From Ignavibacteriaceae bacterium (GTDB lineage Bacteria; Bacteroidota; Ignavibacteria; Ignavibacteriales; Ignavibacteriaceae), in assembly GCA_030584105.1 (NCBI GenBank), contig CP129491.1, positions 2,186,503 to 2,250,502 of the forward strand: 64,000 nt of DNA. The letters are read 5' to 3'. The translations under genes and the position numbers were made by a program. Under the pieces are notes generated by a model. That model was given only the letters and a program-made list of their open reading frames with translations. It ran no database searches and had not been told where the DNA came from. This document shows positions 13,609 through 48,737 of the stretch, piece after piece; within the stretch, counting starts at the first letter, position 1; every line of letters starts with the position of its first letter.

Positions 13609-13657
13609 TTTTTTTTGGGGTTAGCCGTTTGCCGGAATAGTTTGCCTTGTTCCGAAG

Positions 13658-13762
13658 GGCTTGGTTTGCCAAAACGGCTCAGTTTATGCAGGAGTGGCTT
13701 AGTTTATGGCAAAACGGCTTGGTTTATGGCAAAACGGCTTGGTTTTCACCGGAATGGCTCAG
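13658..13762. repeat. c. 20-bp tandem repeat, about 5 copies
   Basis: Degenerate GGCTTGGTTTATGGCAAAAC units run from 13658 up to the stop codon of the minus-strand OMP gene. Confidence 0.75.
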
Positions 13763-14451
13763 AATGATATGTTTACGCCCAATTGTGCGTAGAGCATATC
13801 TGTTTTTGATTTACGCGGGTGGTAGATAACCTTTCCGTGTTGGGTATCAATTTCAACATCTTTTTCTGTCAGGTACTCGGCTTTTGTTCCGAAAAGGTAC
13901 CTTACTTTCAGATCAACCATCACATTTGTGGTTTCGTTGCTGTAAACATTGAACATGATGCCGGGTCCGCCGCCGTAGCTGAACGCCCAGTCATCAAGGT
14001 TGGTATCGCTTGCCACATCCTGATTTTGATTCGAGCCGCTTCTGCTTTGTACCGAAGTGGTGGTATAGAGGTATTGGCCGCCGGCCATCAGATCGACATA
14101 AGCCTTCAGCAGGGTGGTTGGAGTTCCGATTCTGATCAGCCCGTTAAGAGCGACAAGGTTGTTCTGCCTTGTAACATCCACTGTAAGGTCGGGGATGGTG
14201 TAGCTCCAGGGAGCTCTTCTGGTTTCGCTGCCGTAGTTAATGAAGATCAGGTTAGCACCCCACTCAACGGGTGAGCCTTTTACGGTCGGCAGGATAAGTT
14301 CGGCGCCAATTCCGTAGCCAAGTTTATCGACATTATCTTTGAACTCGCCCTGCGGAAAACCAAGAGCGAAGTTGACTCCGAGGCTCTGTGAGAAAGCAAC
14401 CGATGAAAACGAGATGAATAAAAGTGTGATAAATAATTTGGTTTTTGTCAT
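13759..14451 (-). CDS. small outer-membrane beta-barrel protein (OmpW/OmpA-barrel-like)
   Basis: Start moved to ATG 14451, which gives the signal peptide MTKTKLFITLLFISFSSVAFSQS. Gly/aromatic-rich strands end in ...GVNISF. Confidence 0.65.
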   Translation of the reverse strand: MTKTKLFITLLFISFSSVAFSQSLGVNFALGFPQGEFKDNVDKLGYGIGAELILPTVKGSPVEWGANLIFINYGSETRRAPWSYTIPDLTVDVTRQNNLVALNGLIRIGTPTTLLKAYVDLMAGGQYLYTTTSVQSRSGSNQNQDVASDTNLDDWAFSYGGGPGIMFNVYSNETTNVMVDLKVRYLFGTKAEYLTEKDVEIDTQHGKVIYHPRKSKTDMLYAQLGVNISF

Positions 14452-14839
14452 ATTCGTATCATAAATTTGAAAAAATGTATTGCGAATATAATGAAATGTT
14501 GCCATTTTGAAAGAATTGTCGGTGTTTCAGTGGGGTGAATTGTGATGTGTATCTTGTTTAGGGTAGGGGTTTTCTTTTTTCGTTTCTGTGAGTTTAGGTT
14601 TCCGTGAGTTTAGGTTGTGTTTGAATTGGGGAGTCCTGGTATTTTTTTATTTTAATACCGTTTCAGTTCAACATGATAAAGTAATGCGCAAGGATAGTTA
14701 AAGATGGTTAAGTTTTCAAAAACTGTATATTATGCCGGTTATGCCGGAGAAAATTTGAAAGATGAGAGATTCAAATATGTTTTTTTTGCGTTGTCGGAAT
14801 GGCTTTCTTTCAATAAAACCCAACAAACGGAAGAGCTCA

Positions 14840-15037
14840 ATGGGCAAAATAGTTGTTGAAGCCTTACTGCGGTTATTGATCATAATAGTGGTGGTGTTTT
14901 TCATCCGCACCGCCATGCCTGACGATAAATTCCGGCTGATTTTAACACTGTTCGCCGTAAGTGCGGGGGTTATATTTCCAAAAGCGCTTCCCGAGAACCG
15001 AAATGCTAAAAACCAAGGCTTCCGATGGGCAAAATAG
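14840..15037 (+). pseudogene. duplicated 5' copy of the downstream small membrane-protein gene, with an unrelated tail
   Basis: It encodes MGKIVVEALLRLLIIIVVVFFIRTAMPDDKFRLILTLFAVSAGVI, then diverges and stops at 15037. It lacks the Cys-rich C-terminus of the full copy. Confidence 0.45.
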
Positions 15038-15165
15038 TAGTTGAAGCCTTACTGCGATTATTGATAATAATAGTGGTGGTGTTTTTCATCCGCACCGCCA
15101 TGCCTGATGATAAATTTTGGCTGATTTTAACACTGTTCGCCGTAAGTGCGGGGGTAATCCTTCCC
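14840..15165. repeat. tandem segmental duplication, period 185 bp, c. 140 bp conserved per copy
   Basis: ATGGGCAAAATAGT(T/A)GTTGAAGCC...GTAAGTGCGGGGGT occurs at 14840-14980 and 15025-15165 with a few substitutions. Confidence 0.9.
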
Positions 15166-15336
15166 ATTTGGAACTCCTACAAAAAATTCATCGCCGAAAA
15201 CAAAGAAGTATTGGAAAACTCCCTCTGTTCCCGCTGCCGCCACTTCGATCGCTCCGCCGTTCTCTGCACCAAATACGAAGAGCACCCCCGCAAAGACTAC
15301 ATCCCCTGTGGCGGCAAAGATTTCGAACCAAGGTAA
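15025..15336 (+). CDS. small two-TM membrane protein with C-terminal CxxC...C...C (zinc-ribbon-like) tail
   Basis: A 103-aa ORF with two hydrophobic helices, then CSRCRHFDRSAVLCTKYEEHPRKDYIPCGG. Confidence 0.55.
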   Translation: MGKIVVEALLRLLIIIVVVFFIRTAMPDDKFWLILTLFAVSAGVILPIWNSYKKFIAENKEVLENSLCSRCRHFDRSAVLCTKYEEHPRKDYIPCGGKDFEPR

Positions 15337-15402
15337 ATTATTATGTGAATTTCCTATTTTTAATAAAATGGGAAAATATCTAAAATTTTATTAAACTTAG
15401 TT

Positions 15403-16647
15403 TTAATTAATATTTTGATTTTCTATTTTGTCGGTATATAATTTTTTGAACCTCGCTCTAATCTCTGGAGTTATCGAAGGAGTCCCTATTCGCGAACGGG
15501 AAGCATGATAACTATCCAACAAATTGTGTATGTATGGTGGTTGAAGTCTTGCGACTCTTGTTATTTTTGACCGATTATTTTTATAAAATAAGGCTTCTCT
15601 TTTGAAAAAGATAGTCCCTCTACGAAAGTCGCATGCTAAACAAGGCTTTGAATTATAGTTTGCCCATGGAAGGATAAATTCAAAATATAGATGGGCTTGA
15701 TTTTCTAGTTTTATTTCTTTTTCAATTATTAGGAGACACTCTATTTCTATTTGTTTTTCTTGTTCATTAGTATAAAAATGTCGAATATCGCATTCAGGTG
15801 TAATAACTATATGATAAGAACCGTTAAGTCTAAATATATCCCCAGTAAATAATTTATCATTTTTGGGGGGATTAGAATATAAAAGATTTTTAACTAACTG
15901 AGACAACCTTTCAACAGCCCTATCATCAAACTTTTTAATTTTTTCCTTTGTGAAATCCTTTTTGATTTGCTTTTTCATCGCCTTTAATAAGGGTCCATCA
16001 TTCTTAATTTTTTCCGCCACTAACCTGTTTAACACCGAAATTACACCCACTGCAGGTTCTAAAAGGTCCAATTTATTAACATATGCAAAATAATCTATCC
16101 AGTTTGTATCATTTCCATCAAGAAAATTTAATTCTTTGTTCATTGTTCTAATCAAAGCATTTAAATAATTTCTCGGAACTTTAAGAGCTTTGTTTTTATT
16201 CGCTAATTTCTTTATTCCTTTAAATATTTTTTTAGATTCTTCAATTTGATTCTTAGGTTTTCGTTCGAACCTTATTCTATCTCCAAATTTTGCGGTGAAT
16301 TCTTTTTTTATTTCATCTGAAATACCCTCTTGAGAATATATATAGATAAGAGAATATATATCCTTTCCCCGTAAAGTGTTTTCTACAGTTAATTCTCCCG
16401 GTTCGATAAGATTCCCTTCATTTTGTGAGAGTTCATTATCATCTTGTGCGAATTTACGATCGAATTGCCAGTCTAAAATAATTGCAACCGGCGAAGCCAA
16501 AGAATCCAATAAAACTTCAAAACGCTGAATCGAATCAACAGGTATTACGAAATACTCCGTTGATTTTTTCAATTCATTAAATAATTTGTGTTCTTCAGAT
16601 TTCTGATCAAATACCTTATCGTCCACAAAGAGTATTACACCCTCCAT
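15403..16647 (-). CDS. receiver (CheY-like) domain protein with uncharacterised C-terminal effector domain
   Basis: REC-like pattern: VILFVDDK (acidic pair), VAIILDWQF (candidate phospho-acceptor Asp), IYIYSQEG, ERKPK. The C-terminal c. 160 aa has HIVITPECD ... CLLIIEKEIK (a D...ExK-like pattern). Its ATG directly abuts the upstream TAA. Confidence 0.6.
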   Translation of the reverse strand: MEGVILFVDDKVFDQKSEEHKLFNELKKSTEYFVIPVDSIQRFEVLLDSLASPVAIILDWQFDRKFAQDDNELSQNEGNLIEPGELTVENTLRGKDIYSLIYIYSQEGISDEIKKEFTAKFGDRIRFERKPKNQIEESKKIFKGIKKLANKNKALKVPRNYLNALIRTMNKELNFLDGNDTNWIDYFAYVNKLDLLEPAVGVISVLNRLVAEKIKNDGPLLKAMKKQIKKDFTKEKIKKFDDRAVERLSQLVKNLLYSNPPKNDKLFTGDIFRLNGSYHIVITPECDIRHFYTNEQEKQIEIECLLIIEKEIKLENQAHLYFEFILPWANYNSKPCLACDFRRGTIFFKREALFYKNNRSKITRVARLQPPYIHNLLDSYHASRSRIGTPSITPEIRARFKKLYTDKIENQNIN

Positions 16648-18930
16648 TTATCCTCCGTTTAATATTTTGGTTTCTGGTTTTACATTAAAATTTCTTTTGG
16701 ATACATCGATTACTTGTTGAAATTCAATCACGAAATTCGCCCCGTCGGTCAGTCTTTCAGATTCTTTTGTGGCAACATAAATTGTTGCATTGATCCTGTC
16801 TAAAATTTCTTTGACGATGTATAAACCTAAACCTCTCCCTTGTGCTTTCATTGAAAAAAATTCCGAAAAAATAAACAGTTCTATACCTTTTTTAACACCT
16901 GGGCCTGTATCAGCAATTGTTAGTTTCTTTTCCAATGAATCAATTTTGAATATGATTCTTTTATTTTTACTCCCTTTCAAATTCACCCAATAAATGGCAT
17001 TGTCAACAATGTTGATTAAGAATTGTAAAACTAATCCTAAATTGGTCCTTAACATAATGTCATCATCAGCGGTAATTTCTATTTTAATTTTATTCTGAAT
17101 TTCACTATCAAAATATTTCAATATTTTTTTAATTGATTGTAATAAACTAACCTCCTTAATTTCTCTTCTTTGAAACTTGAAAAGAGGTTGAATTATCTGA
17201 AGTTGTTCATACACAATTTTGATAATCTCCTGGACTTCTTTTAACATAGTTTCAGTCTCTGAGAAATCCATCCTATCACTCTTGATCTTAAGCAAACTGT
17301 TATTGATAATATTATTTAGTCTTGAGAGTAACATGAAAGTATCATGGGAAGATTTTTCAACTGCCATCCCAAGCCCTGCCAAATCTTCAACGGTTCGAAG
17401 TTTTAAGATAGTATTCTTTTGAAATTCTTCAATGCTTTTCTTAAGTTTATTAGCAGATTCAATAATTTTAAGATCGGTTCTTTCTTCTAAAGATTCTGTG
17501 AATTCTGTAATTGCGTCAGAAATTGACTGGTATGGTGCATTCGTATTTTGGGTAGATTTTAACTCCTTATGTATTTTATCAATTTTAATTTCTGCGTGAA
17601 ATATTTGTACAATCGATAGAACCACTGCTGCAAATTCGTCAAATATCCCACCAGAATTCATCAAACCTTGCCTGCTTGATGTATCTTTTAAATCTTTATT
17701 ATGCTCCTGAGAGATATATACAAAACCGACTATGTCACTATAACTAGGGTAATCACCGGCTTTTTGAACTGATCGCAACTTATCAAGTTCCAACCAATCA
17801 TATCCTTTCTCGCCAAACGGATATACTCTTACTCCATCTCTTAAAACATAAATAAAATGCTTTTTAAAAGCCTGAAGTTGTTTTCTATTAAGCTTTGAAT
17901 AATCTGGCTTTTTAAGATCATTTGCGAATAACGAAAATTTAAATTCACCAACAGATAACTTACTCTTATTGGACAGATACCCTTTCTTTTTCTTATTTAG
18001 TGCTTGAAGATCATAATTCTCTTTAGCTAAAATTTTATTGTCAAAAATTCTAATTATCTTGGAAAAGGCTCTCATCGGGTTTTTGGAGTTGTAGATAAAC
18101 TGAAGCTTCCCTTCATTATCAATCGTCCCGTACATCTCATAATCTGAATCCATTAAAATTTCTTTTAATGAATATTGGGATTCTTTAGTGATTAACTCAC
18201 CCTCCCAAATCATCTTAACATTAAAATCAGAGATAATTTCCTGTTTCAATTCTTCAGCTTTTGGGTCTTCAGCAGGAATCAATTTCTCGATTGATTCAAA
18301 AACACTCCTAAAATCATCTTTAGCCCACTTTTCTCTCAAATCAGTAATTCTTATAACCGTCCCACTCGATTTGATTAGTTCCCCATTTTGAAACTCCGTA
18401 ATAGTTGGTTCTATTTCACTAAGGAGTTTATGCTTTTTTGAACCTTCATCAGTGAAAAGCGTCGGTTCATCATCATCTAAGCCTTCGAAACTTACTTCCA
18501 AACAAAATTCTGATCCTTCATCTTTTCTGGTATAAACACTTACCTTTCTTCCAATTTTGTGAATCGCGAATCGTCCAATTCCTTTCTCACCTTGAATTGT
18601 TCGGCCAAGCTTCGTTACATTGTCCCTATTTATTTTTTTATCAAGTTTGTTAGGTGTTGCTGGTCGAAGCCACACTTCTTTCAGATCATTCAAACCCATC
18701 CCCAAACCATTGTCGATTATTTCAATTGCTTCCTCTCCACTATTTTTCGTTGAATTGGATTGGGAACCAGAGTCGTATTTAATAGTAACTTCAGTAGCAT
18801 CAGCATCGTATGAATTTTTTATTAACTCTGTAAGAGCAATTTTCCTATCGGTAATCAATTGATCACCCAATATGCTCAACAGTCTTGCGTACGGCTCAAA
18901 TTTATATTTAATTTTTTTATTTTTTGGCAC
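16648..18930 (-). CDS. double GHKL protein: N-terminal MORC/Hsp90/MutL-type ATPase plus C-terminal histidine-kinase-type ATPase
   Basis: N-terminal motifs ELIKNSYDADATEV, IEIIDNGLGMG and GEKGIGRFA. C-terminal motifs NIVDNAIYW (N box), IADTGPGV (G1) and GRGLGLYIV (G2), preceded by a possible H-box, VEKSSHDTF. The GTG start overlaps the upstream TAG by 1 nt. Confidence 0.7.
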   Translation of the reverse strand: MPKNKKIKYKFEPYARLLSILGDQLITDRKIALTELIKNSYDADATEVTIKYDSGSQSNSTKNSGEEAIEIIDNGLGMGLNDLKEVWLRPATPNKLDKKINRDNVTKLGRTIQGEKGIGRFAIHKIGRKVSVYTRKDEGSEFCLEVSFEGLDDDEPTLFTDEGSKKHKLLSEIEPTITEFQNGELIKSSGTVIRITDLREKWAKDDFRSVFESIEKLIPAEDPKAEELKQEIISDFNVKMIWEGELITKESQYSLKEILMDSDYEMYGTIDNEGKLQFIYNSKNPMRAFSKIIRIFDNKILAKENYDLQALNKKKKGYLSNKSKLSVGEFKFSLFANDLKKPDYSKLNRKQLQAFKKHFIYVLRDGVRVYPFGEKGYDWLELDKLRSVQKAGDYPSYSDIVGFVYISQEHNKDLKDTSSRQGLMNSGGIFDEFAAVVLSIVQIFHAEIKIDKIHKELKSTQNTNAPYQSISDAITEFTESLEERTDLKIIESANKLKKSIEEFQKNTILKLRTVEDLAGLGMAVEKSSHDTFMLLSRLNNIINNSLLKIKSDRMDFSETETMLKEVQEIIKIVYEQLQIIQPLFKFQRREIKEVSLLQSIKKILKYFDSEIQNKIKIEITADDDIMLRTNLGLVLQFLINIVDNAIYWVNLKGSKNKRIIFKIDSLEKKLTIADTGPGVKKGIELFIFSEFFSMKAQGRGLGLYIVKEILDRINATIYVATKESERLTDGANFVIEFQQVIDVSKRNFNVKPETKILNGG

Positions 18931-20198
18931 TATCGTTTCTTAAAAATGAGTATATGTTCTTTAGGATACACTTTAACACTATTCAATTCGCTTGGAGAAG
19001 TAAATCTCCCAGATATCGGGTGACGAGTTGTTGGAATCTGCTTCAATGAAATATTTCTCGTAATTCTTTTTTCTAAATAAAAACTTTCTTCTCTCATCAA
19101 ACTGATCAAAATATCCGAGGTGGGTATCGTAACTTCCCTAAGCTTACTATCTCCAACAACCATACAACAGGTTGCTCCTGGTTTTAAAATTCGATGTATT
19201 TCCTGAATTACCTGTTGCATTGAAATAAAATAATTCTCAATTTCTTTCGCAATTTTCTTATTTTTCACTGCTAATTGTGAAACAGTATCTGAGGCTAACA
19301 GACAATTTATTTCAGCTTCAATTTTTTCAGAGTAAAATGTTCCAATAAATTTTTTTCTAAATTCTCTAAGATCACTAAAAAAGTTAAACACATAACCAGA
19401 TAATTGATGAATATCCGCATATTCGTAAGATGTCGCATAAGGAGGGGAGGTAATTACAAGATCAACAGAATCATTTTCAAGTCCAGTATCCCGCGCATCT
19501 CTGAGATGAATTTCACTTTGAATATCCAATCGGTTCTTTTTACTTAGATAGCTATGAAATTCCATGTTCTTTTTCCACATTTTTTTAATCTGATATTCAA
19601 AGAGATTGAAAGGGTCCTTAATCTGTTTCTTTGGATCAATTTGTGGTTTAGTGCTATCTTGAAGCCAACGGCTGGAAGTTTTGAGAATGTTCGATAATCC
19701 AACTTTTAGAAAAGTCTCAAGTTCTTTATTATCTACTTCTTCGATACATTTTTTCAAATAGCCGATTTTGTTTTTCTGCTCTGGGCAAAACCAATAGTTA
19801 AGCCTCGGGTGATCGGATATATAGTATTTTTCTTCCTCGTTGTAGTTGCTAAACCACTCTTGAATTATTTCTAATAAATTTTGATGCGAACCTGGAGCAA
19901 TAGTAGTTATTTTCGATTTTGTTATCATTTCAGCAACTGGATTAACATCAAACCCAATAGACCTGTAGCCATGACTTTTTGCCTCAACCAATGTTGTCCC
20001 ACAACCGGCAAATGGATCAACAATAAGACAATCCTCTGTAGCGTAGGTCTCTATCAATTTGGAAACAATCTGTGGAATAAATTTTGCAGGATACCTGTGG
20101 TAACCGTGGGTGTAGCTATCGATAGACCTGTGCCCGGCAAAAGACCACTCATCTGAACATTCGTTAACTTTACTGTTCTCAACTGCTACACTCAACAC
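18930..20198 (-). CDS. DNA methyltransferase (N4-cytosine or N6-adenine; motif I precedes SPPY)
   Basis: HRYPAKFIPQIV..IVDPFAGCGTTLVEAK (motif I region) and DLVITSPPYATSYEY (motif IV). AT-rich. Confidence 0.8.
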   Translation of the reverse strand: MLSVAVENSKVNECSDEWSFAGHRSIDSYTHGYHRYPAKFIPQIVSKLIETYATEDCLIVDPFAGCGTTLVEAKSHGYRSIGFDVNPVAEMITKSKITTIAPGSHQNLLEIIQEWFSNYNEEEKYYISDHPRLNYWFCPEQKNKIGYLKKCIEEVDNKELETFLKVGLSNILKTSSRWLQDSTKPQIDPKKQIKDPFNLFEYQIKKMWKKNMEFHSYLSKKNRLDIQSEIHLRDARDTGLENDSVDLVITSPPYATSYEYADIHQLSGYVFNFFSDLREFRKKFIGTFYSEKIEAEINCLLASDTVSQLAVKNKKIAKEIENYFISMQQVIQEIHRILKPGATCCMVVGDSKLREVTIPTSDILISLMREESFYLEKRITRNISLKQIPTTRHPISGRFTSPSELNSVKVYPKEHILIFKKR

Positions 20199-28693: not shown

Positions 28694-31495
28694 TTATGCC
28701 GCTATTTCCTCTTTTACCCTTGAAATACATTTTTCAAGGCTATGCCACACTTCATAATTCCAGAATCTCAGAACTTTCCAGCCTTCTCTTTGCATTGTAT
28801 AATCTCTCACATTATCATAACTGCTCCGCGTTCCCGGAACGGCACCTTCATGCCCGCTGCCGTCAACTTCAATGCAGATTTTTTTATCGTCAACAAAAAG
28901 CGCGATATCCATTCTGTACGCAAAAAAATTATACTGGCATTCCGGTTCAAATCCTTCTTCACGGAGTCTTGTTGCCATAATTTTTTCTTCGGGTGTCACG
29001 GGTTCGTGATTGTTTGAAGGGTTAAGGTTTTTTTCCGCATATTTTGCCAAACGACTTAATAATTTGCATTTTGATTTTTTACAAAACTGTTTGTTTCCAA
29101 CGACGATTAAATTAGATTTTGCCCGGGTCAATCCCACATTTATAAGATTGTCGTTCCCTGAATAAAAGAACTCGTTATTATTTTTTAATTTACCCTCAAT
29201 CTCGATTGAGTAACTGACTCCAAGAGAGAAAATCATTACATCTTTTTCATCTCCCTGAAACCGGTGAATTGTATCAATCACAATTTCTTTATTTCCTTTA
29301 TTCTTAGAAAGCAGCGGGGTACATGCCTCCAGTATCTTTTGGACTTGTAATCGAAACGGTGAAGTAATTCCTATACTTGTTATTTCTTCAGAATCAATTA
29401 ATACACTCAAAATTTCTTTGCATTTTTCAATTTCTTTCGAAAGAATAAATTTATTATAAAGCGGTATATATTCATCTTTCACATCAATCCACTCAAAAGT
29501 TGGTTTTTCCCCCCAATTATTTAATTCCAGATAATTAGTACGAATTTTTAATTTATTTCCGTAAAACTCATTGTTTGAAAATGAAATAATCTCTTTTTTT
29601 GATCGAAAATGTTCATCGAGCATTATTTCAGAAGAACCGTCAATATTTTTTGAACGGTGCGCTATTAGTGACAAGATTGAACTTACCCCAAACTCCCACT
29701 CATTGAACTTCATCAAATTAAAATACTGTTTGAATAGTGTTTTACGCCTTTGGGATGAAAGATTTGTAATATGATTAAGCTGTTTTTCATCACCAACTAC
29801 AATTAAACTTTTCGCCCTCAACATTAAACAGAGAGTGGAAGGTATATCGCATTGGCTCGCTTCATCTATTATAACATAGTCAAATATTCCCGGCGAAAGT
29901 GGGAGTTGCCCCGAAACAGACAGGTTTGAAACCGTCCATATTAAAAGAAATTTTCTTATTGGTAAAAATTTTTCCTTAAATTCAACTCGTTCCTGCTTAC
30001 TGTTGAATTGATTATCTATCCAGAAACTAAGTAATCGCTGATATTCATTCAGTAATTTTTTTTCGTTTTCATCGCGGAAAGAATAGTTTTTCCTGATCGT
30101 TAATATTAATATCGCTTTATTAATATTTAATAATTCTTCCCTTTTTCGAAAAATGAGGTCTGTAAGTTCTTCAACGCGCTTCAATTTTTCCGCCCTTAAA
30201 ATCGCTTTGTGATACCTGACCATTTTCTTTATTCTCGGAGAAATTAGGGCAGCTTTCGGAATTGAGTTTAATTTTTGAAGGTTGTAATAAATTTTTTCGT
30301 AATTAACGCTTCTTCCTTTAATATATTTTCTATATTCTTCAGAAATACTTAATCGGGTGTTATTTATTTCTTCCTGTTCAATTAACAGTTGATCAATCTC
30401 TCGTTCAATTTGTTTTGATTTAGCGGAAAGATCACGCAATTTCTGATCTTCCGCCGGCATAAAATTGTTATAATCCTGAATTTCCTGAATATTCGCTTTT
30501 AAAATAGATACTAAGTCCTTTTGACCTTCTGATCTTCCCAGTTTTAGCATAAAAGGCAGTTGGTCAAGGTATTTGTCAATTCGTGACATTACCGTTTCTA
30601 TCGCCTTATGGTTATGGCTGCTGAAAAGAATCGATTTGTTTTTCAAAAAAGCATTAAATATTATGTTTATTACAACATCTGACTTGCCGGTGCCGGGAGG
30701 TCCCTGAATATTGGTTATGCCTGAGGATAAAGCCATTTTAACCGCTTCTTTTTGTGAAGCATTAAGAGGTGTAAACATAGAAACATCTTCGTTCCCGGAT
30801 ATTTTACGGTTTGGCTCAAACAGATATTTTAGTGCACTTTCTGAAAAAAAATCATCCAAAGACTTTGAATTTAATTTGGCAATTTCTTTTAACTCGAACT
30901 CGAGTCCTTTTGTGAAATTAGATTTTTCACAGATAAAAAACGACGCTGCATTGGTATAAATATTTTTTTCCTTCTGTTCTTCCGGGTCCGTACTGATAAA
31001 TTGTTCCAAAGTTTTCATCAATTCTTCAACAATATTTCTCTTTTTCCCGTTGATTGGCTCAGTTAAATTAAGAGCTTCAACCTGCCTCCGAAAACCGTTC
31101 AGGTCAATTCCCATTTCTTCAAAAAAAGTCGAATTAAACCTGAACTCTTCATAATCCACTAAAACAAGTTCTTTCATTTCAGTGAGTATAAAAACAAAAG
31201 CAGGAATTATTTTTTTGTATTCTTTCTGATGAAAGATTGGGAAACCAATTACAAAATCTGTTACTTTTGCTTTTTCATCATTTATACCGAGTCTTTCTTT
31301 TATCCGTTGTATAGAATCAGCAGGAAAGTTCTCATTTTTTTGAAATAACTCAAACTCTTCTTCCTCCAAATTGAGGTAAGTTCTTTTCTTTTTCTTTTCA
31401 TCTTTGGCAACTTCTGTGGCAATTTTAAATTCTCTGTCTTCAATAACATACTGATGATAGTAGTCAATCAGCTTTCTAAAATCTTCTTTTTTCAT
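28694..31495 (-). CDS. SF1B (Upf1/Dna2-like, AAA_11/AAA_12) helicase fused to C-terminal DUF559/Vsr-like PD-(D/E)xK endonuclease
   Basis: Walker A IQGPPGTGKS, Walker B VIIDEASQC, plus VVGDEKQL, LDEHFRS, IHRFQGDEKDVMIFS and NVGLTRAKSNLIVVG. The C-terminus reads YRMDIALFVDDKKICIEVDGSGHE...REGWKVLRFWNYEV. Confidence 0.85.
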   Translation of the reverse strand: MKKEDFRKLIDYYHQYVIEDREFKIATEVAKDEKKKKRTYLNLEEEEFELFQKNENFPADSIQRIKERLGINDEKAKVTDFVIGFPIFHQKEYKKIIPAFVFILTEMKELVLVDYEEFRFNSTFFEEMGIDLNGFRRQVEALNLTEPINGKKRNIVEELMKTLEQFISTDPEEQKEKNIYTNAASFFICEKSNFTKGLEFELKEIAKLNSKSLDDFFSESALKYLFEPNRKISGNEDVSMFTPLNASQKEAVKMALSSGITNIQGPPGTGKSDVVINIIFNAFLKNKSILFSSHNHKAIETVMSRIDKYLDQLPFMLKLGRSEGQKDLVSILKANIQEIQDYNNFMPAEDQKLRDLSAKSKQIEREIDQLLIEQEEINNTRLSISEEYRKYIKGRSVNYEKIYYNLQKLNSIPKAALISPRIKKMVRYHKAILRAEKLKRVEELTDLIFRKREELLNINKAILILTIRKNYSFRDENEKKLLNEYQRLLSFWIDNQFNSKQERVEFKEKFLPIRKFLLIWTVSNLSVSGQLPLSPGIFDYVIIDEASQCDIPSTLCLMLRAKSLIVVGDEKQLNHITNLSSQRRKTLFKQYFNLMKFNEWEFGVSSILSLIAHRSKNIDGSSEIMLDEHFRSKKEIISFSNNEFYGNKLKIRTNYLELNNWGEKPTFEWIDVKDEYIPLYNKFILSKEIEKCKEILSVLIDSEEITSIGITSPFRLQVQKILEACTPLLSKNKGNKEIVIDTIHRFQGDEKDVMIFSLGVSYSIEIEGKLKNNNEFFYSGNDNLINVGLTRAKSNLIVVGNKQFCKKSKCKLLSRLAKYAEKNLNPSNNHEPVTPEEKIMATRLREEGFEPECQYNFFAYRMDIALFVDDKKICIEVDGSGHEGAVPGTRSSYDNVRDYTMQREGWKVLRFWNYEVWHSLEKCISRVKEEIAA

Positions 31496-41051: not shown

Positions 41052-41438
41052 AACAATTTATCAATGGAAAATCAATTCTGTAAAAAAAATCTGCATTTAT
41101 GTTGGACACTGTATCCGTAAAAATTTATTCCGTTTTTGGAATTTTTTCGGTTAGATGCGACCTGTAAAAATTCCACAAACAAAGATAACTTTGCAGAATT
41201 AAAATAGAGCAAAAATAAAAGTTGCAAAAAAATCACCGGTAAATATACGCCAAAACAGCAATTCCACTTTTAAACAGAATATTGTTAGAATTTTTGCAAA
41301 ATAATCTTCAACCTCTTTTCGCATCCCTCGCTTGAGCCAAGATTTTTTCAGCTTTCAAAATGAAAATCTGTAAACGATTAATAACTTAACACAAAATTTC
41401 TAAAATTTGTTTATTGGATTTAAATTCAAATTTGTAAA

Positions 41439-41467
41439 TTGACAACCGTAATAATTTATTTTAAACT
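41439..41467 (+). promoter_or_regulatory. candidate sigma70-like promoter (TTGACA-N17-TAAACT)
   Basis: -35 at 41439-41444 and -10 at 41462-41467, about 19 nt before the TTG start of the HD gene. Confidence 0.3.
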
Positions 41468-41485
41468 TCGCAGGTTCTAACAGAG

Positions 41486-42778
41486 TTGACTTTAAAATTC
41501 CAATATGAAGTTCGTGATCCAATTTATGGATTTATACCTTTTACTGAATTAGAAAAGTTGGTTATAGAACAACCGGCTTTTCAAAGACTTAGAAGGATTT
41601 CCCAACTTGCGTTAACCCACTATGTTTACCCCGGTGCAACTCACACCAGGTTGTCACATTCTTTGGGGGTGATGCACACTGCATCTCTGATGTATCAATC
41701 GGTCGTTGAGTCAAGTGGTGAAGATTTAAAACGAGAGTTTTATTTTGATGACTCATCTCTAAGCAGAATGCATCAAATAGTTCGATTAGCCGCTTTGTTA
41801 CACGATATCGGGCATAGCCCTTTCTCTCATGCTTTAGAATCGGTTATGCCAAAAAACAAGAAGACGGGTGAACAGTATAAACATGAGGACTATACCATAG
41901 CAATTATTAATAAAATTATTGGAGATATTCCAAAAAATAGTCCTCATCAAATAAGCAAAGAATCGATTACCGATCTGATTGATCGAAAAGGGTTAGAACT
42001 AAAAAGTTTCGCTCTCTTCTTTAAATCGTTAATCTCGAGTCAGTTAGACGCTGATAGGGCTGATTATTTATTAAGAGATTCTTATCATTGTGGTGTGAAA
42101 TATGGCGTTTATGACCACCCAAGATTGGTTAATTCTATTACTTTAGGGTTTGATCAATATAATAACCCATTCATCGGAATAAAAGAGGAAAGTTGGCAAT
42201 TAGCTGAAAGTTTGGTCTTAGCCAGATATTGGATGCATTTTTATGTCTATCTTCATAAAACACGCAGAATTTTTGACTATCATTTAGAAGAAGCAGTCAA
42301 ATATATTTTTCAGGATAAAAATCTTCCTGCTCCTAGTTCTTTAAATAAATATATTGAATTAGATGATGGTAGTATCTGGGAAAAGTTAAAAAAGAATAAA
42401 AATAATGTTCATTGTAACGCGATTTTAAATAGAGATCATTTTAGGTTACTTTACTCTAACAGTAAGGTAGATTCTGATTATGAGAATACTAAATTCTCTA
42501 AAATTATTGATAAATTAGAAGAACAAAATATCGAGTATTTTATTGATTCTTTTTCATCAAATTTCTATAAAACTGAAACAGACAAAAAACCTGATAATGC
42601 GGATTCTTATTTCGACCCTAAAGAAATTTACATTGTTGATGCTGAAAGAAATATTACCCCTTTAGCTGAAAAATCAACTTTTTTATCAAAATTAACAAAG
42701 GAAATAAGTTTTAAAAACATTTATGTTGCCCCAAAGAACAAAAAAGAGGCAAAAAAAATAATTGGTGAACTAAAATGA
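41486..42778 (+). CDS. HD-domain (d)NTP triphosphohydrolase-like protein (COG1078 / SAMHD1-like)
   Basis: RDPIYGFI, FQRLRRISQL, THTRLSHSLGV, LAALLHDIGHSPFSH and QLDADRADYLLRDSYHCGV. TTG is the only in-frame start near the conserved N-terminus. Confidence 0.8.
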   Translation: MTLKFQYEVRDPIYGFIPFTELEKLVIEQPAFQRLRRISQLALTHYVYPGATHTRLSHSLGVMHTASLMYQSVVESSGEDLKREFYFDDSSLSRMHQIVRLAALLHDIGHSPFSHALESVMPKNKKTGEQYKHEDYTIAIINKIIGDIPKNSPHQISKESITDLIDRKGLELKSFALFFKSLISSQLDADRADYLLRDSYHCGVKYGVYDHPRLVNSITLGFDQYNNPFIGIKEESWQLAESLVLARYWMHFYVYLHKTRRIFDYHLEEAVKYIFQDKNLPAPSSLNKYIELDDGSIWEKLKKNKNNVHCNAILNRDHFRLLYSNSKVDSDYENTKFSKIIDKLEEQNIEYFIDSFSSNFYKTETDKKPDNADSYFDPKEIYIVDAERNITPLAEKSTFLSKLTKEISFKNIYVAPKNKKEAKKIIGELK

Positions 42779-43269
42779 AATACAACTATAAAGTGCAATA
42801 TCTTAAAGAGTTAATTAATTTTTTACAGGCTAATGACCCTTCTGGTGAAATTGGCAGAACGAAAGTTCAAAAATTATTATTTATTCTTGATCAAAAATAT
42901 AACTTAGGATTTAACTTCACCCTTTATCATTACGGGCCTTACAGTTGGGATGTATCACACCTTCTTCAGTTTGCTGTTAATCAAGAGCTAATTACTGAAG
43001 TATGGAACCAAGCAACAGGTTATAAAATATCGCCGACTAATAATTTGGATAATGTTGAAACGGAAGAAGGGATCAAAGAAAATATCGAAAACACTATCTC
43101 CGGTTTTTTAAAGTACAATGTTAAAGATTTAGCAATTATAGCTACCGGACTGTTAATTCGTGAGGGGACAAAAAAGAATTTGGACGAAATCGCTCAGATG
43201 GTTCATAATATAAAACCGGGTTCTGATCTCAATAAAATTAAATCTCTTCTTAACGAACAGATTACATGA
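42775..43269 (+). CDS. Panacea/SocA-like (DUF4065, YwgA-like) small protein
   Basis: ATGA overlap with the HD gene. GRTKVQKLLFILDQKY...LYHYGPYSWDV fits the T.KLQKLLY...GP pattern of the Panacea domain, as recalled from memory. Confidence 0.5.
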   Translation: MKYNYKVQYLKELINFLQANDPSGEIGRTKVQKLLFILDQKYNLGFNFTLYHYGPYSWDVSHLLQFAVNQELITEVWNQATGYKISPTNNLDNVETEEGIKENIENTISGFLKYNVKDLAIIATGLLIREGTKKNLDEIAQMVHNIKPGSDLNKIKSLLNEQIT

Positions 43270-43822
43270 TCCGGAAAGAATGAAGATTGCGGAGAGTTTT
43301 GTGTTATTTAAATGGGAGTACGAAGTGGTCCTTCGGATGCGAGTTTTTCATAACCGAGATTTTCTGCGATTTCTGATTCTCTCATTGCCTCGAGAGAATT
43401 TTTTATCAGGTTGTTAATCACATTATCATTATCCCTTAGGCGGGCTTCTGCTTTAATTCGTCTCGGTGGCGATGTTTGTTAATTACACCATTATTCTCTC
43501 TCAGTTTTTCATGGGTTTTTGCCCGTATAAATTCTTTTTGAAATTGGTCAATAACAACATGTGTAAGTTTAATGGTAGTTTTTCTTAAAAATTGATACTG
43601 TGTGCAATAACAAGAAAATAAGGGTAGATACTCCCCACCTACAATCCGAATTTTAAACCAATTACATAATATCCTGAACAGTCTCAAATTTCCTGCATTC
43701 CCTCCTACAATCCAAAAAAAATTCACACTTGAGAAATTATCACACAACTTTCCTTCATTTTTTTATTCCTAATAAAACACTAAATTAAACTTAATTAATT
43801 GCATTTTAAAAGGTTACATAAC

Positions 43823-46534
43823 ATGAGTACTATTCTTTCTACTGAGTTATTATCACTTCTTCACCATGTGGAACTAAATAAGAGCGGTTGGTGGGAAGAA
43901 TCTGTCCAAAGTTTCATTTCAGTTGCTTTTATTCAAAATGGAAATGCCTGGATGGTAGATTCTGAAATTATACAATTTTTGACCGAAAAACTTGAACTAC
44001 AGATTGATCAAGATCGTATCAAAAAACAAATTGAAGTTATGTTGTCTAAGAAAATGCTGAAATATTCAGATGGAAAATTTAATTTATCAATAACTTTTTA
44101 TTCAGAATACTCAGAAAATTATCAACAACAATTAGATGTAGAAAATAAAGCAAAGAAATGTTTTTTTGAAATTAGTCGGCTCATCGATCAACAAACAGAC
44201 CCCGAACAACTATGGAGTGAGTTTAATAATCAACTTTTAAATCCTTTGATAAAAGAGAGTGGCGTAAAAACTATTGAGATAATTACAGGGGCAAATTCAC
44301 ACTCTTTCGAAGAATTTAGTCGATTCACGAATTATCTTTCCAAATATGCTGAGAAAAAAACTAAGATTCAAGAAATTTTGGTTAAATTCTTAAATTCTAA
44401 AGATGAAAATGTCCATAAATACTTGCTTACAAGGTTAAGTGCTTACTTTTTCCTTGCGGCTACAAATTTAGATACCGGAACAATAGACCATATTTATTCT
44501 CTTTCAAAAATGCAAACAAATCTTAAAGTATTCGTTGATACGAATTTCTTGCTTAGTTTACTCGATTTGCATGATAATCCGTTAAATGATGCTTCAAACT
44601 CTCTAAAAACGTTGGTAAATGAGATTAATAAAAAAGTGAATGTAAAATTCTTTATTCTTCCAATTACAATCAGTGAATTTCAAAATTTAATAAAAAAAAT
44701 CAGTGAACGATTACGAGAGCTAAACCCGCAACTCAACCAGGCAATTGCTTTAGAAGAAAATCCAAATATTAGTGGTTTAATAAAACGCTATTACCAAAAA
44801 TGCCGTGAGAAAAATTCGATAATAAAAATTGATGATTATTTTGGACCATATTTAAACAATTTTAGTTCTGTTATAAGAAACAAAGGATTGGAAATTTATC
44901 AGGTTGATTTATCAGAATATGAAACTGACAGAAAAGTTATTGATGATATTGACTTTCAGATAAATTACCGTTTCAGTAAATCTGAAAAAGAGGGTAAATT
45001 TTATGGTTGGTCTGAAGAACAAAAAGAAAATGAAAAATCTATTATGCATGGTAAATTTAACCATGATTGTCAAATTTGGCATTATGTTAATGATCTAAGA
45101 CCGGAATATATAGATTCAATAAAAGAGGTCGAACATTGGATATTAACTTTAGATTTTAATTTCTTAGAATTTGATCGAATTAAGCTTATTCAGATGAATA
45201 AGAAGATTGCCACATGTCTTCACCCTAAAGACTTTATAGCATTACTACAATTTTGGGTCCCTCGGACACAAAAACTTGAAGATGCAATTTTAGGTAACAT
45301 TCAATTACCGTTATTATTTAAAGAGATTGATATTAATAAAGAAAAAGCAATAATACAAATTCTAGAAGCTATTTCACATTTTGAAAACAGCGAAGATTTC
45401 AGTCCCGAATTAGTAGCTGAAATTTTAACCGAAATCGCTCTTAAAGGTAAAATTATCCAAAGTAATTCAGTTGAAGTAAATGTTCAATTAATTCAGTCGG
45501 AAATACTACAAAAGTACGATTCATTAAAGGAATCGCATCAAAAAGTCAACAAAGAAAATGAAACATTTAGAAAAGAATTAAAAGAATTAGAACAATCGAT
45601 TAATGAGAATATCTCTCGTTCTTTAGGACGTCGGAGAAATTATCATATTGATGGGATGATTGAACGGAAAAAGATACAAATTCAAGAAATCACCATTAGG
45701 ATTTCTGACAAAGAAGAATTAATCAATCGAGCAAACAAAGAATATATTCAAACCCGAAAACAAATAAAACATAGGATATTATCTATCTTTAAGGGAGCAA
45801 CATATTTAGAATTATTAAGAGATAAAATTCAGAAGAAATATTACAATAAAAATGAAATTGACCTTTTAAAATTAGAAGAAGCTTCGCTTAAAAAAGAATA
45901 TGATGAGCTTCAAGAATTGAATAAAAATGAAAATATTATCATTTTTTGCGAAAATACAGATTCTGAATTATTGAATGATTTAGGCTATCAGGGTATTTAT
46001 TTCTCACCAGTAAAGAATAGTAACGAAGTTTTTATCAAGACAAGAGCAAATAACACATTTTTTGGGTTGCGTGATCGTGATTTTTTGATCGACGAGGAAA
46101 TTAATAAGATTAGAGAACTCCACCCAAATTTGCAGATTTTAGAATATTACTGTTTAGAAAATTATCTATATCACCCTGAAAATCTTAACAGCCTTGGTTT
46201 AGAAAACTTTACAATAAACGAATATCTTAACGAATTAATCAATCAAAAGAAAAATAAAATAAAGAAGATCATACTGAACATAAAGAATTCTCGCAGCTCG
46301 TATGAAGAGTTTAAATTACCCCAAGAAAAAATTAAACAGAATGAAGAAATATTGTTCGAATATTTGGAATCAGATGATATTGAAAAATTTCTCAAAGCCT
46401 TTAGTCTAAAATCTGAATTTGATAAATCTTGTTTGTCTAAGTACAATCTTAATAAAAAAAAATTGGCTTCAACACGATGGTTTAAAAGTAGGATCGATAA
46501 ACTTCTTGAGTCATTGGAACTCTCAGATAGTTAA
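43823..46534 (+). CDS. large multidomain protein: N-terminal unknown, PIN-like domain, coiled coil, C-terminal DUF4435/Toprim-like domain
   Basis: ATG 43823 is preferred over TTG 43799. KVFVDTNFLLSLLD ... ILPITISEF ... WILTLDFNF is PIN-like. Residues c. 560-720 form a K/E-rich coiled coil. IIIFCENTDSELL ... FFGLRDRDFL ... YYCLENYLYHPE is DUF4435/OLD-Toprim-like. Confidence 0.6.
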   Translation: MSTILSTELLSLLHHVELNKSGWWEESVQSFISVAFIQNGNAWMVDSEIIQFLTEKLELQIDQDRIKKQIEVMLSKKMLKYSDGKFNLSITFYSEYSENYQQQLDVENKAKKCFFEISRLIDQQTDPEQLWSEFNNQLLNPLIKESGVKTIEIITGANSHSFEEFSRFTNYLSKYAEKKTKIQEILVKFLNSKDENVHKYLLTRLSAYFFLAATNLDTGTIDHIYSLSKMQTNLKVFVDTNFLLSLLDLHDNPLNDASNSLKTLVNEINKKVNVKFFILPITISEFQNLIKKISERLRELNPQLNQAIALEENPNISGLIKRYYQKCREKNSIIKIDDYFGPYLNNFSSVIRNKGLEIYQVDLSEYETDRKVIDDIDFQINYRFSKSEKEGKFYGWSEEQKENEKSIMHGKFNHDCQIWHYVNDLRPEYIDSIKEVEHWILTLDFNFLEFDRIKLIQMNKKIATCLHPKDFIALLQFWVPRTQKLEDAILGNIQLPLLFKEIDINKEKAIIQILEAISHFENSEDFSPELVAEILTEIALKGKIIQSNSVEVNVQLIQSEILQKYDSLKESHQKVNKENETFRKELKELEQSINENISRSLGRRRNYHIDGMIERKKIQIQEITIRISDKEELINRANKEYIQTRKQIKHRILSIFKGATYLELLRDKIQKKYYNKNEIDLLKLEEASLKKEYDELQELNKNENIIIFCENTDSELLNDLGYQGIYFSPVKNSNEVFIKTRANNTFFGLRDRDFLIDEEINKIRELHPNLQILEYYCLENYLYHPENLNSLGLENFTINEYLNELINQKKNKIKKIILNIKNSRSSYEEFKLPQEKIKQNEEILFEYLESDDIEKFLKAFSLKSEFDKSCLSKYNLNKKKLASTRWFKSRIDKLLESLELSDS

Positions 46535-46926
46535 ATTTAATTCGAATTAGTGTCCCATTTAATATTCCGAACACTGAACCAAAACAGATTTAATTCTATA
46601 TCAATTAACTTAGTTAATCAACAATTAAGATTGAACAGCTACAGTTTATAATTCTTCGGAAATCTCCGGCAGTGTTTTTTCAAATTCTATTTGAAGGAAT
46701 TTCAGATATGTCCGGTTCGTTTTAGTCAGAGATATTGCTTATTGACACCAATTTTTAGCGGCGTTATCTTTAAGTTTTACTTCAATATCTTCTCGCTCCT
46801 TTTTTTCAATTATCCGGTTAGTTCATCACTTGTAATAGCAATAAAATCAGTGAGGCAATTTCTAATATTCGCATTGTTTTACCAAATATTTATCGTAAGA
46901 TTCAAATCTATTTTCGTGGCTTCCCA

Positions 46927-47442
46927 TTATTTTAATTTAATTTGAAAGGCACTGATCAAACCATCTTCTGCTCTTTTTCGTACATCGATTAAATCGGCAT
47001 CAGTTGCCATTGTTTTAGGAATCTGCAAAGAAAACTCTAATTCTTTACCTGATTCGATATCTACACGGTAGTAACCGGGCAAAGGTTTACCTAAAATTTC
47101 GCCATTTTTTAGAATAAAAATATCTTCACCACTCAAAATAAAAGGTTCAAAACTTGTGTTTTTTATTTTAAGTTTCAAACTTGAGTGATATAAGTTAGTG
47201 GTATCATACGATATTACTGTCAGTTTGATTGTTAACTTTCGTAAAATTTTTGTTGATGTAAGACCCTGCGCACCCAAATACTGATATGAAATATTAAATT
47301 CTTTATTTGGCATTGTTACACTTGGTGTAAGTTTTGAAGAATCAATTTTCACCTCAGGTTTTACCGTAACTTTGACTTCTTCTTTGCAACCAAATATGAA
47401 AATGCCAACTACAACTACAGAAAGGTAAATCAAGATTTTCAT
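46927..47442 (-). CDS. lipoprotein, unknown function
   Basis: Lipobox MKILIYLSVVVVGIFIFGC. The 171-aa protein looks beta-rich. Confidence 0.6.
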   Translation of the reverse strand: MKILIYLSVVVVGIFIFGCKEEVKVTVKPEVKIDSSKLTPSVTMPNKEFNISYQYLGAQGLTSTKILRKLTIKLTVISYDTTNLYHSSLKLKIKNTSFEPFILSGEDIFILKNGEILGKPLPGYYRVDIESGKELEFSLQIPKTMATDADLIDVRKRAEDGLISAFQIKLK

Positions 47443-47667
47443 TACTTCATTCCTTTTATATTTTATTGATGATTATGTTGTGTATGATGATTTTGAAAGC
47501 AGCCTTTCATTCTTAAGTTAAGTAAAAATTGCCGACGATTGAATTATGACTAAGACCAAAAACAAAATTACCAAAATTATTTTCGATTAAAAAATTCTCC
47601 AGAACTCTGTTTCATTTTTTCATTACATAGTTTGTACATTTCTAGATTTTTGGGGGGAATAAGCCCG

Positions 47668-48737
47668 TTACCATTCAACGCCCTCCATCATTTCTTCAAG
47701 TGCGGCTTGTACCCGTTCATCGGGATCGTGTTGCAGGGTTGCATACAAGGAAAATATATCAACTGTGCCGCCATCTGATAAGGGGCGGGGGTTATATTTC
47801 CAGATTTCAAGTTGAAAATCCGCATCTTCTTGGAAATCAGCTATTTCAAATTTGCCCGGAACCCGAGCCGGAGACTTATGGGTATCTTCTTTGAAATCAA
47901 CCGTCTCAAAATTGTCTTGAATCTGAACCCGAGCCGGAACCTTAGGGGTGCCTTCTTTGAAATCAACCATTTCAAAATTGCCGTTTTTAATCATTTTTTC
48001 AAATTCACGGTTTCTGCACGCATAGGTTTTCACGGCGTCATCGGCAAGCATGCTGTATTGGAAAGTGCCGTTACGCCCGCTTCGGGTAGTTGAAGCACGG
48101 TTTTTTTCGTTTCTCCGACCATAAATTTAACGGATGCCACCGGGTTAAACAGATACTGTCTTCCTTTTTCCCAAATCGTTTTGCGATCGGCTGCAAGTTG
48201 CGGAATTTTTTTGCGCCCGTCGGAAATTCTTCGCACCAATTCCTTATTTTCAAGTTCCTGCAAAGCCCGCGAAACGCTCATGTTCGAGTACCCAAGTTTT
48301 TTCGGCAATTTGCCCGGGGGTGGTTGTTCCGGAATGATTTTGCAGAAGAAAGATGAAAACCTGCTGCGCCACAGGGGTGAAGTGGTGCTTCGGTTCACTG
48401 ATCTGCTGACCTCTGTTGCGAATGCTTATCATAAAATCGGGGGAGATACGCCTGCCTGCCGGGGATGATAAAACTGAACCCTGTATTTTATCAGACGAAA
48501 CGCTTCAACAGTAGTGAGCGCCTCGGTGCAATATATTACTGGTTTGTGCAGGAACCGAAGAATTGCCTCAACCGATTTTTTGATTTCATAAGGGGTGAGG
48601 CGCGTTTTTCTTTTATCGAATGCAAACAGCACCTTCGTGTTGAATAATTCACCTTCAACAATTTGAAACCCTCTGAAGCAAATAGAGTGGCAGCTTTTTC
48701 GCACCGGCTTTGTACCCAAAGTTCGGCTGAACTCCAA
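47668..48737 (-). pseudogene. multiply frameshifted wHTH (MarR-like) regulator-family gene
   Basis: A continuous homolog-like reading needs four frames: ORFs 48429..48737, 48250..48432, 48030..48398 and 47668..48051. The HTH QIAEKLGYSNMSVSRALQELENKELV is split at c. 48300. The C-terminal part holds about 3 x 25-aa repeats (NFE(M/T)VDFKE(G/D)T..(V/S)PARV). Confidence 0.55.

Follow-up and report, generated by a model that had tools for sequence, protein, structure and literature searches.

A candidate ATPase-less defence protein joining a PIN-like module to an AriB-like Toprim domain in an Ignavibacteriaceae genome

Here we describe a gene carried on the + strand of a 64,000-nucleotide (nt) stretch of an Ignavibacteriaceae bacterium genome (assembly GCA_030584105.1, contig CP129491.1, positions 2,186,503 to 2,250,502), hereafter the window, which denotes the whole stretch that was analysed and in whose coordinates positions are given. 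The gene (43823..46534) encodes a protein of 903 amino acids (aa) in which an N-terminal winged-helix and PIN-like module is connected by a long charged linker to a C-terminal domain resembling AriB, the Toprim RNase of PARIS. We judge, with a probability of roughly 0.6, that this is a stand-alone, ATPase-less phage-defence protein of the abortive-infection type with a swappable effector, here the AriB-like Toprim domain. A preliminary description, made from the sequence alone, had read the gene as a two-nuclease, ATPase-less defence effector, either independent or a third component of an upstream HD module.

The gene and its product

The open reading frame (ORF) occupies 43799..46534 on the + strand, giving 911 aa from a TTG start at 43799 and 903 aa from the ATG at 43823, with a TAA stop at 46532-46534. 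The 903-aa start is favoured because homologues begin at the equivalent methionine (MSKILSSEI...) in the alignment. The six motifs on which the preliminary description was built all lie in this single ORF at their expected residues, namely KVFVDTNFLLSLLD at 235, ILPITISEF at 278 and WILTLDFNF at 439, followed by IIIFCENTDSELL at 705, FFGLRDRDFL at 746 and YYCLENYL at 775. The motifs do not arise by chance, as all 31 full-length homologues keep their key residues unchanged, and the key codons were verified in the DNA. A motif scan of the entire protein found neither a Walker A motif nor GK[ST], and the gene has a GC content of 28.7%, compared with 30.3% for the surrounding island (about 41100-47500) and 47-48% for the flanks; the earlier statements that the gene is very AT-rich and lacks an ATPase motif are therefore upheld. 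The identical protein, with the same surroundings, is present on more than 23 public metagenome contigs. When PDB chains were searched by sequence and by profile with the whole protein, A2, A4 and A7, only coiled-coil or chance matches came back.

A C-terminal Toprim-like domain related to AriB

The C-terminal domain (residues ~705-903) consists of a Toprim core (residues 705-~795, 45935..46207, + strand), assigned from the AlphaFold2 (AF2) model, the PADLOC AriB match and invariant residues, and a helical subdomain (residues ~796-903, 46208..46531, + strand), in which AF2 places helices from 798-826 onward at high confidence. When the domain of the 903-aa protein was scanned alone it matched the PADLOC model of AriB with an E value of 4.2e-4 (segment 42-186 against profile 41-192 of 236), a match that surfaced only with the C-terminal domain scanned in isolation and across relatives. 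Among 34 non-redundant copies of the domain, AriB was matched by nine (best 1e-6) and the fused AriAB models by seven, with a single other PADLOC model matched, by one sequence. One copy (P0117) additionally gave a sub-threshold match to Pfam DUF4435, in register over profile positions 18-159 (E 6.7e-4). Two profile searches of a set of 5.8 billion proteins with the C-terminal domain stayed within the family and reached no protein annotated as DUF4435.

Toprim domains are defined by a beta-alpha fold of four strands, in which strand 1 is followed by a conserved Glu and strand 3 by a DxD motif (Aravind et al. 1998, cited in PMC11464382). The AF2 model of the domain (predicted local distance difference test, pLDDT, 92.7; predicted template modelling score, pTM, 0.88) has this arrangement, with four strands alternating with helices (beta-alpha x4): strand 705-710 ends at E710, strand 747-750 leads into D751-R-D753, and strand 770-772 into Y775-Y-C-L-E779-N. 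The acidic residues are conserved accordingly, since E710, D751, D753, Y776, E779, N780, H784, P785, N787 and W886 are invariant in the 34 copies, four other architectures included. The codons of E710 (45950-45952), D751 (46073-46075), D753 (46079-46081) and E779-N780 (46157-46162) were checked in the DNA (+ strand); the core also holds D713 and H784-P785. The helical subdomain, with conserved R824, Y827, E829, K863, T884, W886 and F887, accompanies the Toprim core in every architecture, and the AriB profile match runs into it as far as segment residue 186.

The same domain was found by profile searches in several other settings: alone (~200 aa), and fused to receiver, Roc-COR and ATP-binding cassette (ABC) ATPase domains. 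In the ABC ATPase fusions (P0277-P0282, P0321, P0358), which match AAA_21, AAA_15 and SMC_N, the Toprim domain follows the C-terminal half of the ATPase, with its LSxGEK signature, FIDEMDxHLN Walker B and WTASHxLGF H-loop. At one locus (L006) the N-terminal ATPase half is the adjacent upstream gene, and the two genes together have the layout of class 1 OLD proteins, ATPase then Toprim. This occurrence in an OLD-like layout lends independent support to the Toprim assignment. The claim of a DUF4435/OLD-type Toprim C-terminus is thus supported by the AriB and AriAB matches, the predicted topology and the ATPase fusions, and the domain appears to be detectably homologous to AriB. It behaves, as far as its domain settings indicate, as a portable nuclease effector which can take the place of the Toprim domain of an OLD-like protein.

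In the receiver fusions, ~350-aa proteins named "response regulator", the Toprim domain follows the receiver; these proteins have CEG, not CEN, after strand 1 and form a sizeable group of their own. One of them, in Sphingobacterium faecium CP123861 (L007, 2100-7023), is immediately preceded by a 1151-aa Y4jQ (PF27260) protein and a 130-aa ORF, an arrangement that may be another uncharacterised system. In the Roc-COR proteins (COR-A/COR-B; L008, 4725-6515, and P0263-P0273) the AriB-like Toprim domain follows COR-B and ends the protein; some are named 'internalin A' (leucine-rich repeats), and their architecture suggests GTPase-controlled versions of the Toprim effector.

The N-terminal module and its PIN-like core

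The first ~560 residues form a module of four parts. It begins with a winged-helix-like domain (residues ~1-90, 43823..44092, + strand), modelled by AF2 as four helices and a beta hairpin (H7-20, H23-38, H46-56, H63-75, E79-82, E85-88), with weak Foldseek matches to the winged helix-turn-helix (wHTH) regulators PadR and IdeR and invariant L12, L18, G22 and W23. This is followed by a region that is all-helical in the AF2 secondary structure (residues ~91-228, 44093..44506, + strand), which is conserved across the family (F114, W131, P141, G147, L216) and has no assignable fold. After the PIN-like core (residues ~229-480, 44507..45262, + strand), the module closes with a conserved helical segment (residues ~481-555, 45263..45487, + strand) running from FWVPR... 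to ...ALRxKI, with AF2 helices at 483-491, 504-522 and 528-544 and invariant W478, P480, R481 and E486 around it.

The core was assigned from its invariant residues, the AF2 model, a match to HARP and weak Pfam PIN matches. In the N-terminal AF2 model (pLDDT 84.4) it is an alpha/beta unit with strands 232-238, 272-278 and 438-441, interrupted by a helical insertion of ~130 residues (about 300-430). D239 follows strand 232-238, T282 and E285 open the helix after 272-278, D444 follows 438-441 and D451 lies in the next helix. Over 55 sequences from both subfamilies, the distant short form included, D239-T240-N241, T282, E285, H414-D415, T442, D444 and D451 are invariant, as they are in A7; the codons of D239 (44537-44539), E285 (44675-44677), H414-D415 (45062-45067), D444 (45152-45154) and D451 (45173-45175) were checked in the DNA (+ strand). 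Model and conservation together show what is expected of a PIN-like domain, an alpha/beta/alpha fold with acidic residues at strand ends and in the following helices.

Foldseek matched the N-terminal model to HARP, a PIN-like minimal RNase P (8ssf), with a probability of 0.99, a template modelling score of 0.56 normalised to the target and an E value of 0.2. This was the sole compact match, and the methyltransferase matches which topped the list were discarded (root-mean-square deviation about 20 Å). At the sequence level, Pfam PIN and PIN_3 matched the same region (profile 1-56) in three of ten short-form relatives at E values of 0.02-0.08, under the cut-off, while the 903-aa protein itself had no match to Pfam PIN families at E<=1 and a profile search of PDB sequences reached no PIN protein. 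The proposed PIN-like domain is thus plausible but less well supported than the Toprim assignment, with the fold match and the invariant acidic set in its favour and sequence matches that stay sub-threshold and come from relatives only. Judged from model and conservation, we consider the core likely to be PIN-like and probably active.

The linker

Between the two modules lies a charged, proline-free helical linker (residues ~556-704, 45488..45934, + strand), recognised from its composition, the alignment and a profile search. Residues 556-705 contain 46% K/E/R/Q/D and no proline, AF2 is helical at both modelled ends (the models flank 569-689), and the only profile matches in this segment were to coiled-coil proteins. 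The linker is poorly conserved, with indels and variable length (homologue alignment A1). A crude heptad test was not decisive, so that the long coiled coil described earlier stands as a long charged helical linker, which is probably a coiled coil.

Family size, spread and exchange of C-termini

A search of the same 5.8 billion proteins returned 115 relatives. About 70 of them, most from Bacteroidota (Flavobacterium, Arenibacter, Paludibacter, Lentimicrobiaceae), are full length (900-935 aa, 37-48% identity); the remainder, of 720-775 aa, match the query over its first 545-680 residues only. An exhaustive HMMER search with the N-terminal module against 1.84 billion cluster representatives (clusters at 50% identity) gave 1080 clusters at E<=1e-3, 488 of them at <=1e-30, and the short form accounts for nearly all among the 150 cluster matches listed. 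In a scan of one genome per species the family was present at 78 loci in Bacteroidota, Acidobacteriota, Chloroflexota, Nitrospirota, Proteobacteria, Actinomycetota, other phyla and one Methanosarcinaceae metagenome-assembled genome, a patchy spread that fits horizontal transfer. Plasmid and phage collections held no family match; in viral collections the 903-aa protein had no match and the N-terminal module matched two contigs.

The C-terminus is the variable part of the family. In the set of 65 full-length genomic copies, predicted transmembrane (TM) helices, one to four and mostly three, close the protein in 57, and the Toprim domain does so in eight. Defence systems usually exchange TM segments and nucleases as their effectors, and the variable position is normally the effector. 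We therefore regard the C-terminus as probably the effector, since it can be swapped between TM segments and Toprim. A possible third C-terminus in P0161 and P0184 (D...EAKGY, PD-(D/E)xK-like) was unconfirmed, being a motif only with no PDB match. The family is without a model in Pfam, NCBIfam and PADLOC 2.0, a 2023 version, so that later naming of the family is possible, and our literature search found no description of a wHTH/PIN-like plus Toprim architecture. The earlier view that this is no named system accords with these searches, in which the whole protein matched no Pfam, NCBIfam or PADLOC model.

Association with type I restriction-modification operons

Clustering of the ORFs flanking the family gene gave three recurrent co-oriented neighbours, which Pfam and PADLOC identified as HsdS, HsdR and HsdM of type I restriction-modification (R-M) systems. 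Among 42 well-flanked loci, i.e., those in which the gene is full length and flanked by 5 kb or more on each side, 13 have the order hsdM-hsdS-gene-hsdR, and two loci (L027, L041) show 4-nt overlaps with hsd genes at one or both junctions. Pfam detected Methylase_S in 9-10 of 119 nearest neighbours, HSDR_N, ResIII, T1R_D3 and SWI2_SNF2 in HsdR, and N6_Mtase and HsdM_N in HsdM. Neighbour ORFs were called crudely, as the longest ORFs; the Hsd identities are backed by the two libraries and, at one locus (L090), by precomputed Pfam annotation. At this locus a Toprim-type relative 46% identical to the 903-aa protein (P0016) is the first gene, 17 nt ahead of hsdM, in the order gene-HsdM-ORF6N-GIY-YIG-HsdS-UDG-HsdR-YgjP, and a Flavobacterium locus (L012) resembles it. 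DUF499, GmrSD_N, Mrr_cat, Eco57I, MmeI_Mtase and Type ISP were also seen among the nearest neighbours, and L001 carries SMEK_N, AAA_23, transposases and integrase fragments. The expected association with defence genes is therefore present, with restriction genes dominating the nearest neighbours.

Two further features of these neighbourhoods were seen. With its ORF6N, GIY-YIG, UDG and YgjP-like genes among or after the hsd genes, the L090 operon (11780-19395) is unusually crowded. In four loci from Chloroflexota and Actinomycetota (L045, L046, L051, L084) a conserved pair of proteins, each of ~950-970 aa, is encoded close to the family gene; DUF499 was matched by three nearest neighbours in the locus set, and the partner of the DUF499-type protein presumably is a DUF1156-type methylase.

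Proposed mode of action

For the 903-aa protein we infer nuclease activity, substrate, dimerisation, trigger and defence function as follows. The N-terminal module would keep the protein silent and sense infection, and the long charged helix, if a coiled coil, would dimerise it. Activation would then free or re-arrange the two Toprim domains of the dimer, which would cut nucleic acid by two-metal catalysis through E710, D713, D751, D753 and E779. If AriB and P2 Old are a guide, the target would probably be tRNA or other RNA, possibly DNA, and cleavage of RNA would stop translation and phage growth. In the TM-type relatives, which are the majority, a membrane segment of 2-3 helices would replace the Toprim domain and damage the membrane. 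Loss or inhibition of restriction is a plausible trigger, as for PrrC and PARIS, because about a third of the well-sampled family loci lie in type I R-M operons; the window copy, with no R-M genes nearby, would act alone. The PIN active site could serve as a co-effector, in an activating processing step or as the true effector.

More tentatively, and at odds clearly below even, the wHTH/PIN-like family may form a new and widespread class of R-M guardians. Such proteins would be made with, and perhaps docked on, a type I R-M enzyme and would fire a swappable effector when a phage disables restriction. That effector would consist of membrane helices in most lineages and, in the Bacteroidota branch to which this gene belongs, of an AriB-like Toprim RNase independent of an ATPase.

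Weighing of the alternatives

Several observations weigh against an AriB-like effector protein with a role in defence. Whole-protein scans against Pfam, PADLOC and NCBIfam returned noise only, and the DUF4435 match came from one member of 34 with a score of 19.9 bits, under the 27-bit gathering cut-off. Foldseek searches of PDB and BFVD with the C-terminal model gave generic flavodoxin/CheY-like alpha/beta structures only (E>=0.03), with none of OLD, GajA, AriB or RNase M5 in the top 50. The structural check of the Toprim fold thus has the AF2 topology and acidic placement on its side but no Toprim nuclease among the Foldseek matches, an outcome that is uninformative, not contradictory, and neither supports nor excludes Toprim. 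Furthermore, the protein differs from PARIS in having no AriA ABC ATPase as partner or fusion. No Hsd homologue occurs in the 64-kb window, so this copy is not R-M-embedded, and the guardian idea may not apply to it because only two of about 11 Toprim-type loci are R-M-embedded. The PIN residues are invariant, and for this reason the PIN-like domain may be the real effector or a co-effector, not a sensor.

This last point leads to a reading which we hold to be somewhat unlikely, in which the effector nuclease is the PIN-like domain, with the C-terminus as a localisation or sensing device (a membrane anchor in most relatives) or an auxiliary nuclease, making the protein a true two-nuclease effector. 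The acidic set together with T240, N241, T282, H414, D415 and T442 is invariant over the 55 sequences from distant phyla, which argues for an active PIN domain in every member, TM-type included, and the fold match is to a PIN-like RNase, HARP. Single proteins with an RNase domain and TM helices are also listed among defence candidates. Set against this are the normal role of a variable position as the effector, with TM segments, Toprim and restriction-like nucleases usually interchanging there, the sub-threshold sequence support for PIN, and the completeness of the Toprim catalytic set in every architecture, which is not that of a degenerate binding module. The preliminary idea of a two-nuclease effector may accordingly be too simple; both acidic sets are invariant, and the Toprim domain is probably the effector because the C-terminus is the swappable part. 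A role outside defence seems improbable, whether as a selfish nuclease, e.g., in addiction to or stabilisation of a mobile island, or as a housekeeping one in RNA processing like the Toprim RNase M5. The AT-rich island and the integrase and transposase genes near some homologues would suit such a role, as would the similarity of the AriB active site to RNase M5 (PMC12409363). However, the patchy phylum spread and sporadic copy are unlike those of a housekeeping enzyme, the near absence of the family from plasmid, phage and viral collections argues against plasmid or phage maintenance, and its tight embedding in R-M operons, next to restriction genes, also speaks against a role outside defence.

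The preliminary description had also allowed that the gene is the third component of a three-gene system with the upstream pair, an HD protein and a YwgA-like protein, and this we now reject as highly improbable. The HD protein (41486-43269, + strand) is a SAMHD1-like deoxynucleoside triphosphate (dNTP) triphosphohydrolase (PDB 2hek, E 4e-42; EF1143, 5e-27; SAMHD1, about 1e-20; Pfam HD and HD_assoc_2), and its gene shares 4 nt with that of a 164-aa protein similar to the C-terminal part of DarG and to the PADLOC candidate PDC-M19A. The three genes are co-oriented in one AT-rich island, where the gene starts 553 nt past the stop of the pair at 43269, matching the 0.55 kb given earlier, and the arrangement recurs on all public contigs with the identical protein, though these are of the same organism. 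However, HD or YwgA homologues were found at 0 of 78 related loci (BLASTP E<=1e-3, +/-10 kb), nor were they present at five homologue loci with precomputed Pfam annotation, so orthologues do not stay beside such pairs; the window gene has the HD dNTPase, the YwgA-like protein and a lipoprotein-like ORF as neighbours, and its nearest homologues keep company with quite different genes. A terminator-like hairpin (43375..43400, + strand; a 9-bp stem then a T run, consensus match only) follows the pair and likely marks an operon boundary; five such sites were found, against 1.5 expected in shuffles. The gap (43270-43800) also holds opposite-strand ORF fragments, at 43308-43421 (37 aa) and 43436-43747 (103 aa), where public records call an 83-aa gene, and these may be the remnant of a decayed gene. 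The HD/YwgA-like pair may instead be a defence module of its own, acting by dNTP depletion and independent of the 903-aa gene.

Implications of a proposed stand-alone Toprim effector

If the protein is indeed a stand-alone defence protein with an AriB-like effector, control of a PARIS-type Toprim effector would not require an ABC ATPase. The AriB-type Toprim would then work outside the ATPase-Toprim pairing of OLD, Gabija and PARIS, raising the question of its restraint and trigger, and the candidate single-gene defence proteins would gain a large family, with about a thousand clusters at 50% identity spread over many phyla. It would also be a second, unrelated family in a prrC-like position inside type I R-M operons, so that several phyla and two effector types would be available for a direct test of whether built-in back-up suicide modules are common in restriction systems. 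A separate profile would be worthwhile for the C-terminal domain family, which occurs in fusions with PIN, receiver, Roc-COR and ABC ATPase modules.

Other features of the window

A terminator-like hairpin (46656..46669, + strand; consensus match only) lies 122 nt 3' of the gene's stop. A search for flanking repeats and tRNAs around the AT-rich island yielded nothing convincing.

Two further AT-rich regions were seen in the window. An island on the - strand (15403-20198, 31-34% GC) contains three ORFs in the same orientation, of 414, 760 and 422 aa. The largest product combines a GHKL/HSP90-like ATPase region near its N-terminus (residues 14-151) with an ATPase region of histidine-kinase type towards its C-terminus (517-726), and the island could be another acquired system. 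A third AT-rich stretch (28694-31495, - strand, 33-35% GC) encodes a 933-aa Upf1/Sen1/Dna2-like superfamily 1 helicase (PDB Sen1, E 5e-16). Finally, the mechanical ORF list places three consecutive ORFs of 127, 122 and 102 aa at 47668-48737 (- strand), while the same region on other public contigs of the organism holds a single 377-aa MarR/TrmB-like gene (L087, 11846-12979); this discrepancy could reflect a frameshift in the window, or a difference of assembly or gene caller.

Comparison with known systems

Known AriB and OLD nucleases rely on an ABC ATPase for control. The likeness to AriB of PARIS lies in the homologous C-terminal ~200 aa, in which E, D/N, DxD and E come in the same order (they were compared by order), in the helical subdomain after the Toprim core and in the occurrence of both in restriction-linked defence contexts. 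In contrast to PARIS, the Toprim domain here is joined by a long helix to a wHTH/PIN-like module and falls under the Pfam DUF4435 threshold, and Foldseek retrieved no PARIS structure. AriB is a two-metal Toprim RNase with acidic residues E26, D30, D88, E90 and E122 (PMC11464382) and an active site resembling that of RNase M5 (PMC12409363), and when AriA senses Ocr it sets AriB free, which then acts as a dimer and cuts tRNA-Lys and related tRNAs (PMC11464382, PMC12409363). P2 Old also cleaves tRNA (PMC12445682).

The OLD family (P2 Old, class 1 and 2 OLD, and GajA of Gabija) shares a Toprim domain with a Glu / DxD / Glu centre, and close relatives of the present domain are fused to an ABC ATPase (AAA_15, AAA_21, SMC_N) in the order ATPase then Toprim; the 903-aa protein differs in having no ATPase and no match to OLD or GajA models or structures. 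With PIN nucleases, i.e., VapC-type toxins and HARP, the N-terminal core shares a predicted three-layer alpha/beta fold with acidic residues at strand ends, and differs in its ~130-residue helical insertion and the extra invariant H414-D415. Furthermore, it lies within a 560-residue module, whereas a VapC-type toxin is a ~130-residue protein with an antitoxin.

PrrC combines an ABC-ATPase-like domain with a HEPN RNase. The family resembles PrrC and RloC in placing a gene for a putative latent nuclease inside hsdM-hsdS-(gene)-hsdR, as in 13 of the 42 family loci, and differs in having no sequence or fold relation to them, with the window copy lying outside an R-M locus. PrrC sits inside a type I R-M locus (EcoprrI) and fires on inhibition of restriction, and together with PARIS it has been described as an R-M guardian (PMC12707154). 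The 903-aa protein is a member of neither PARIS nor PrrC because the defining ABC ATPase is absent; in its proposed action it comes closest to an AriB-type effector, and the genomic position of its family is like that of PrrC.

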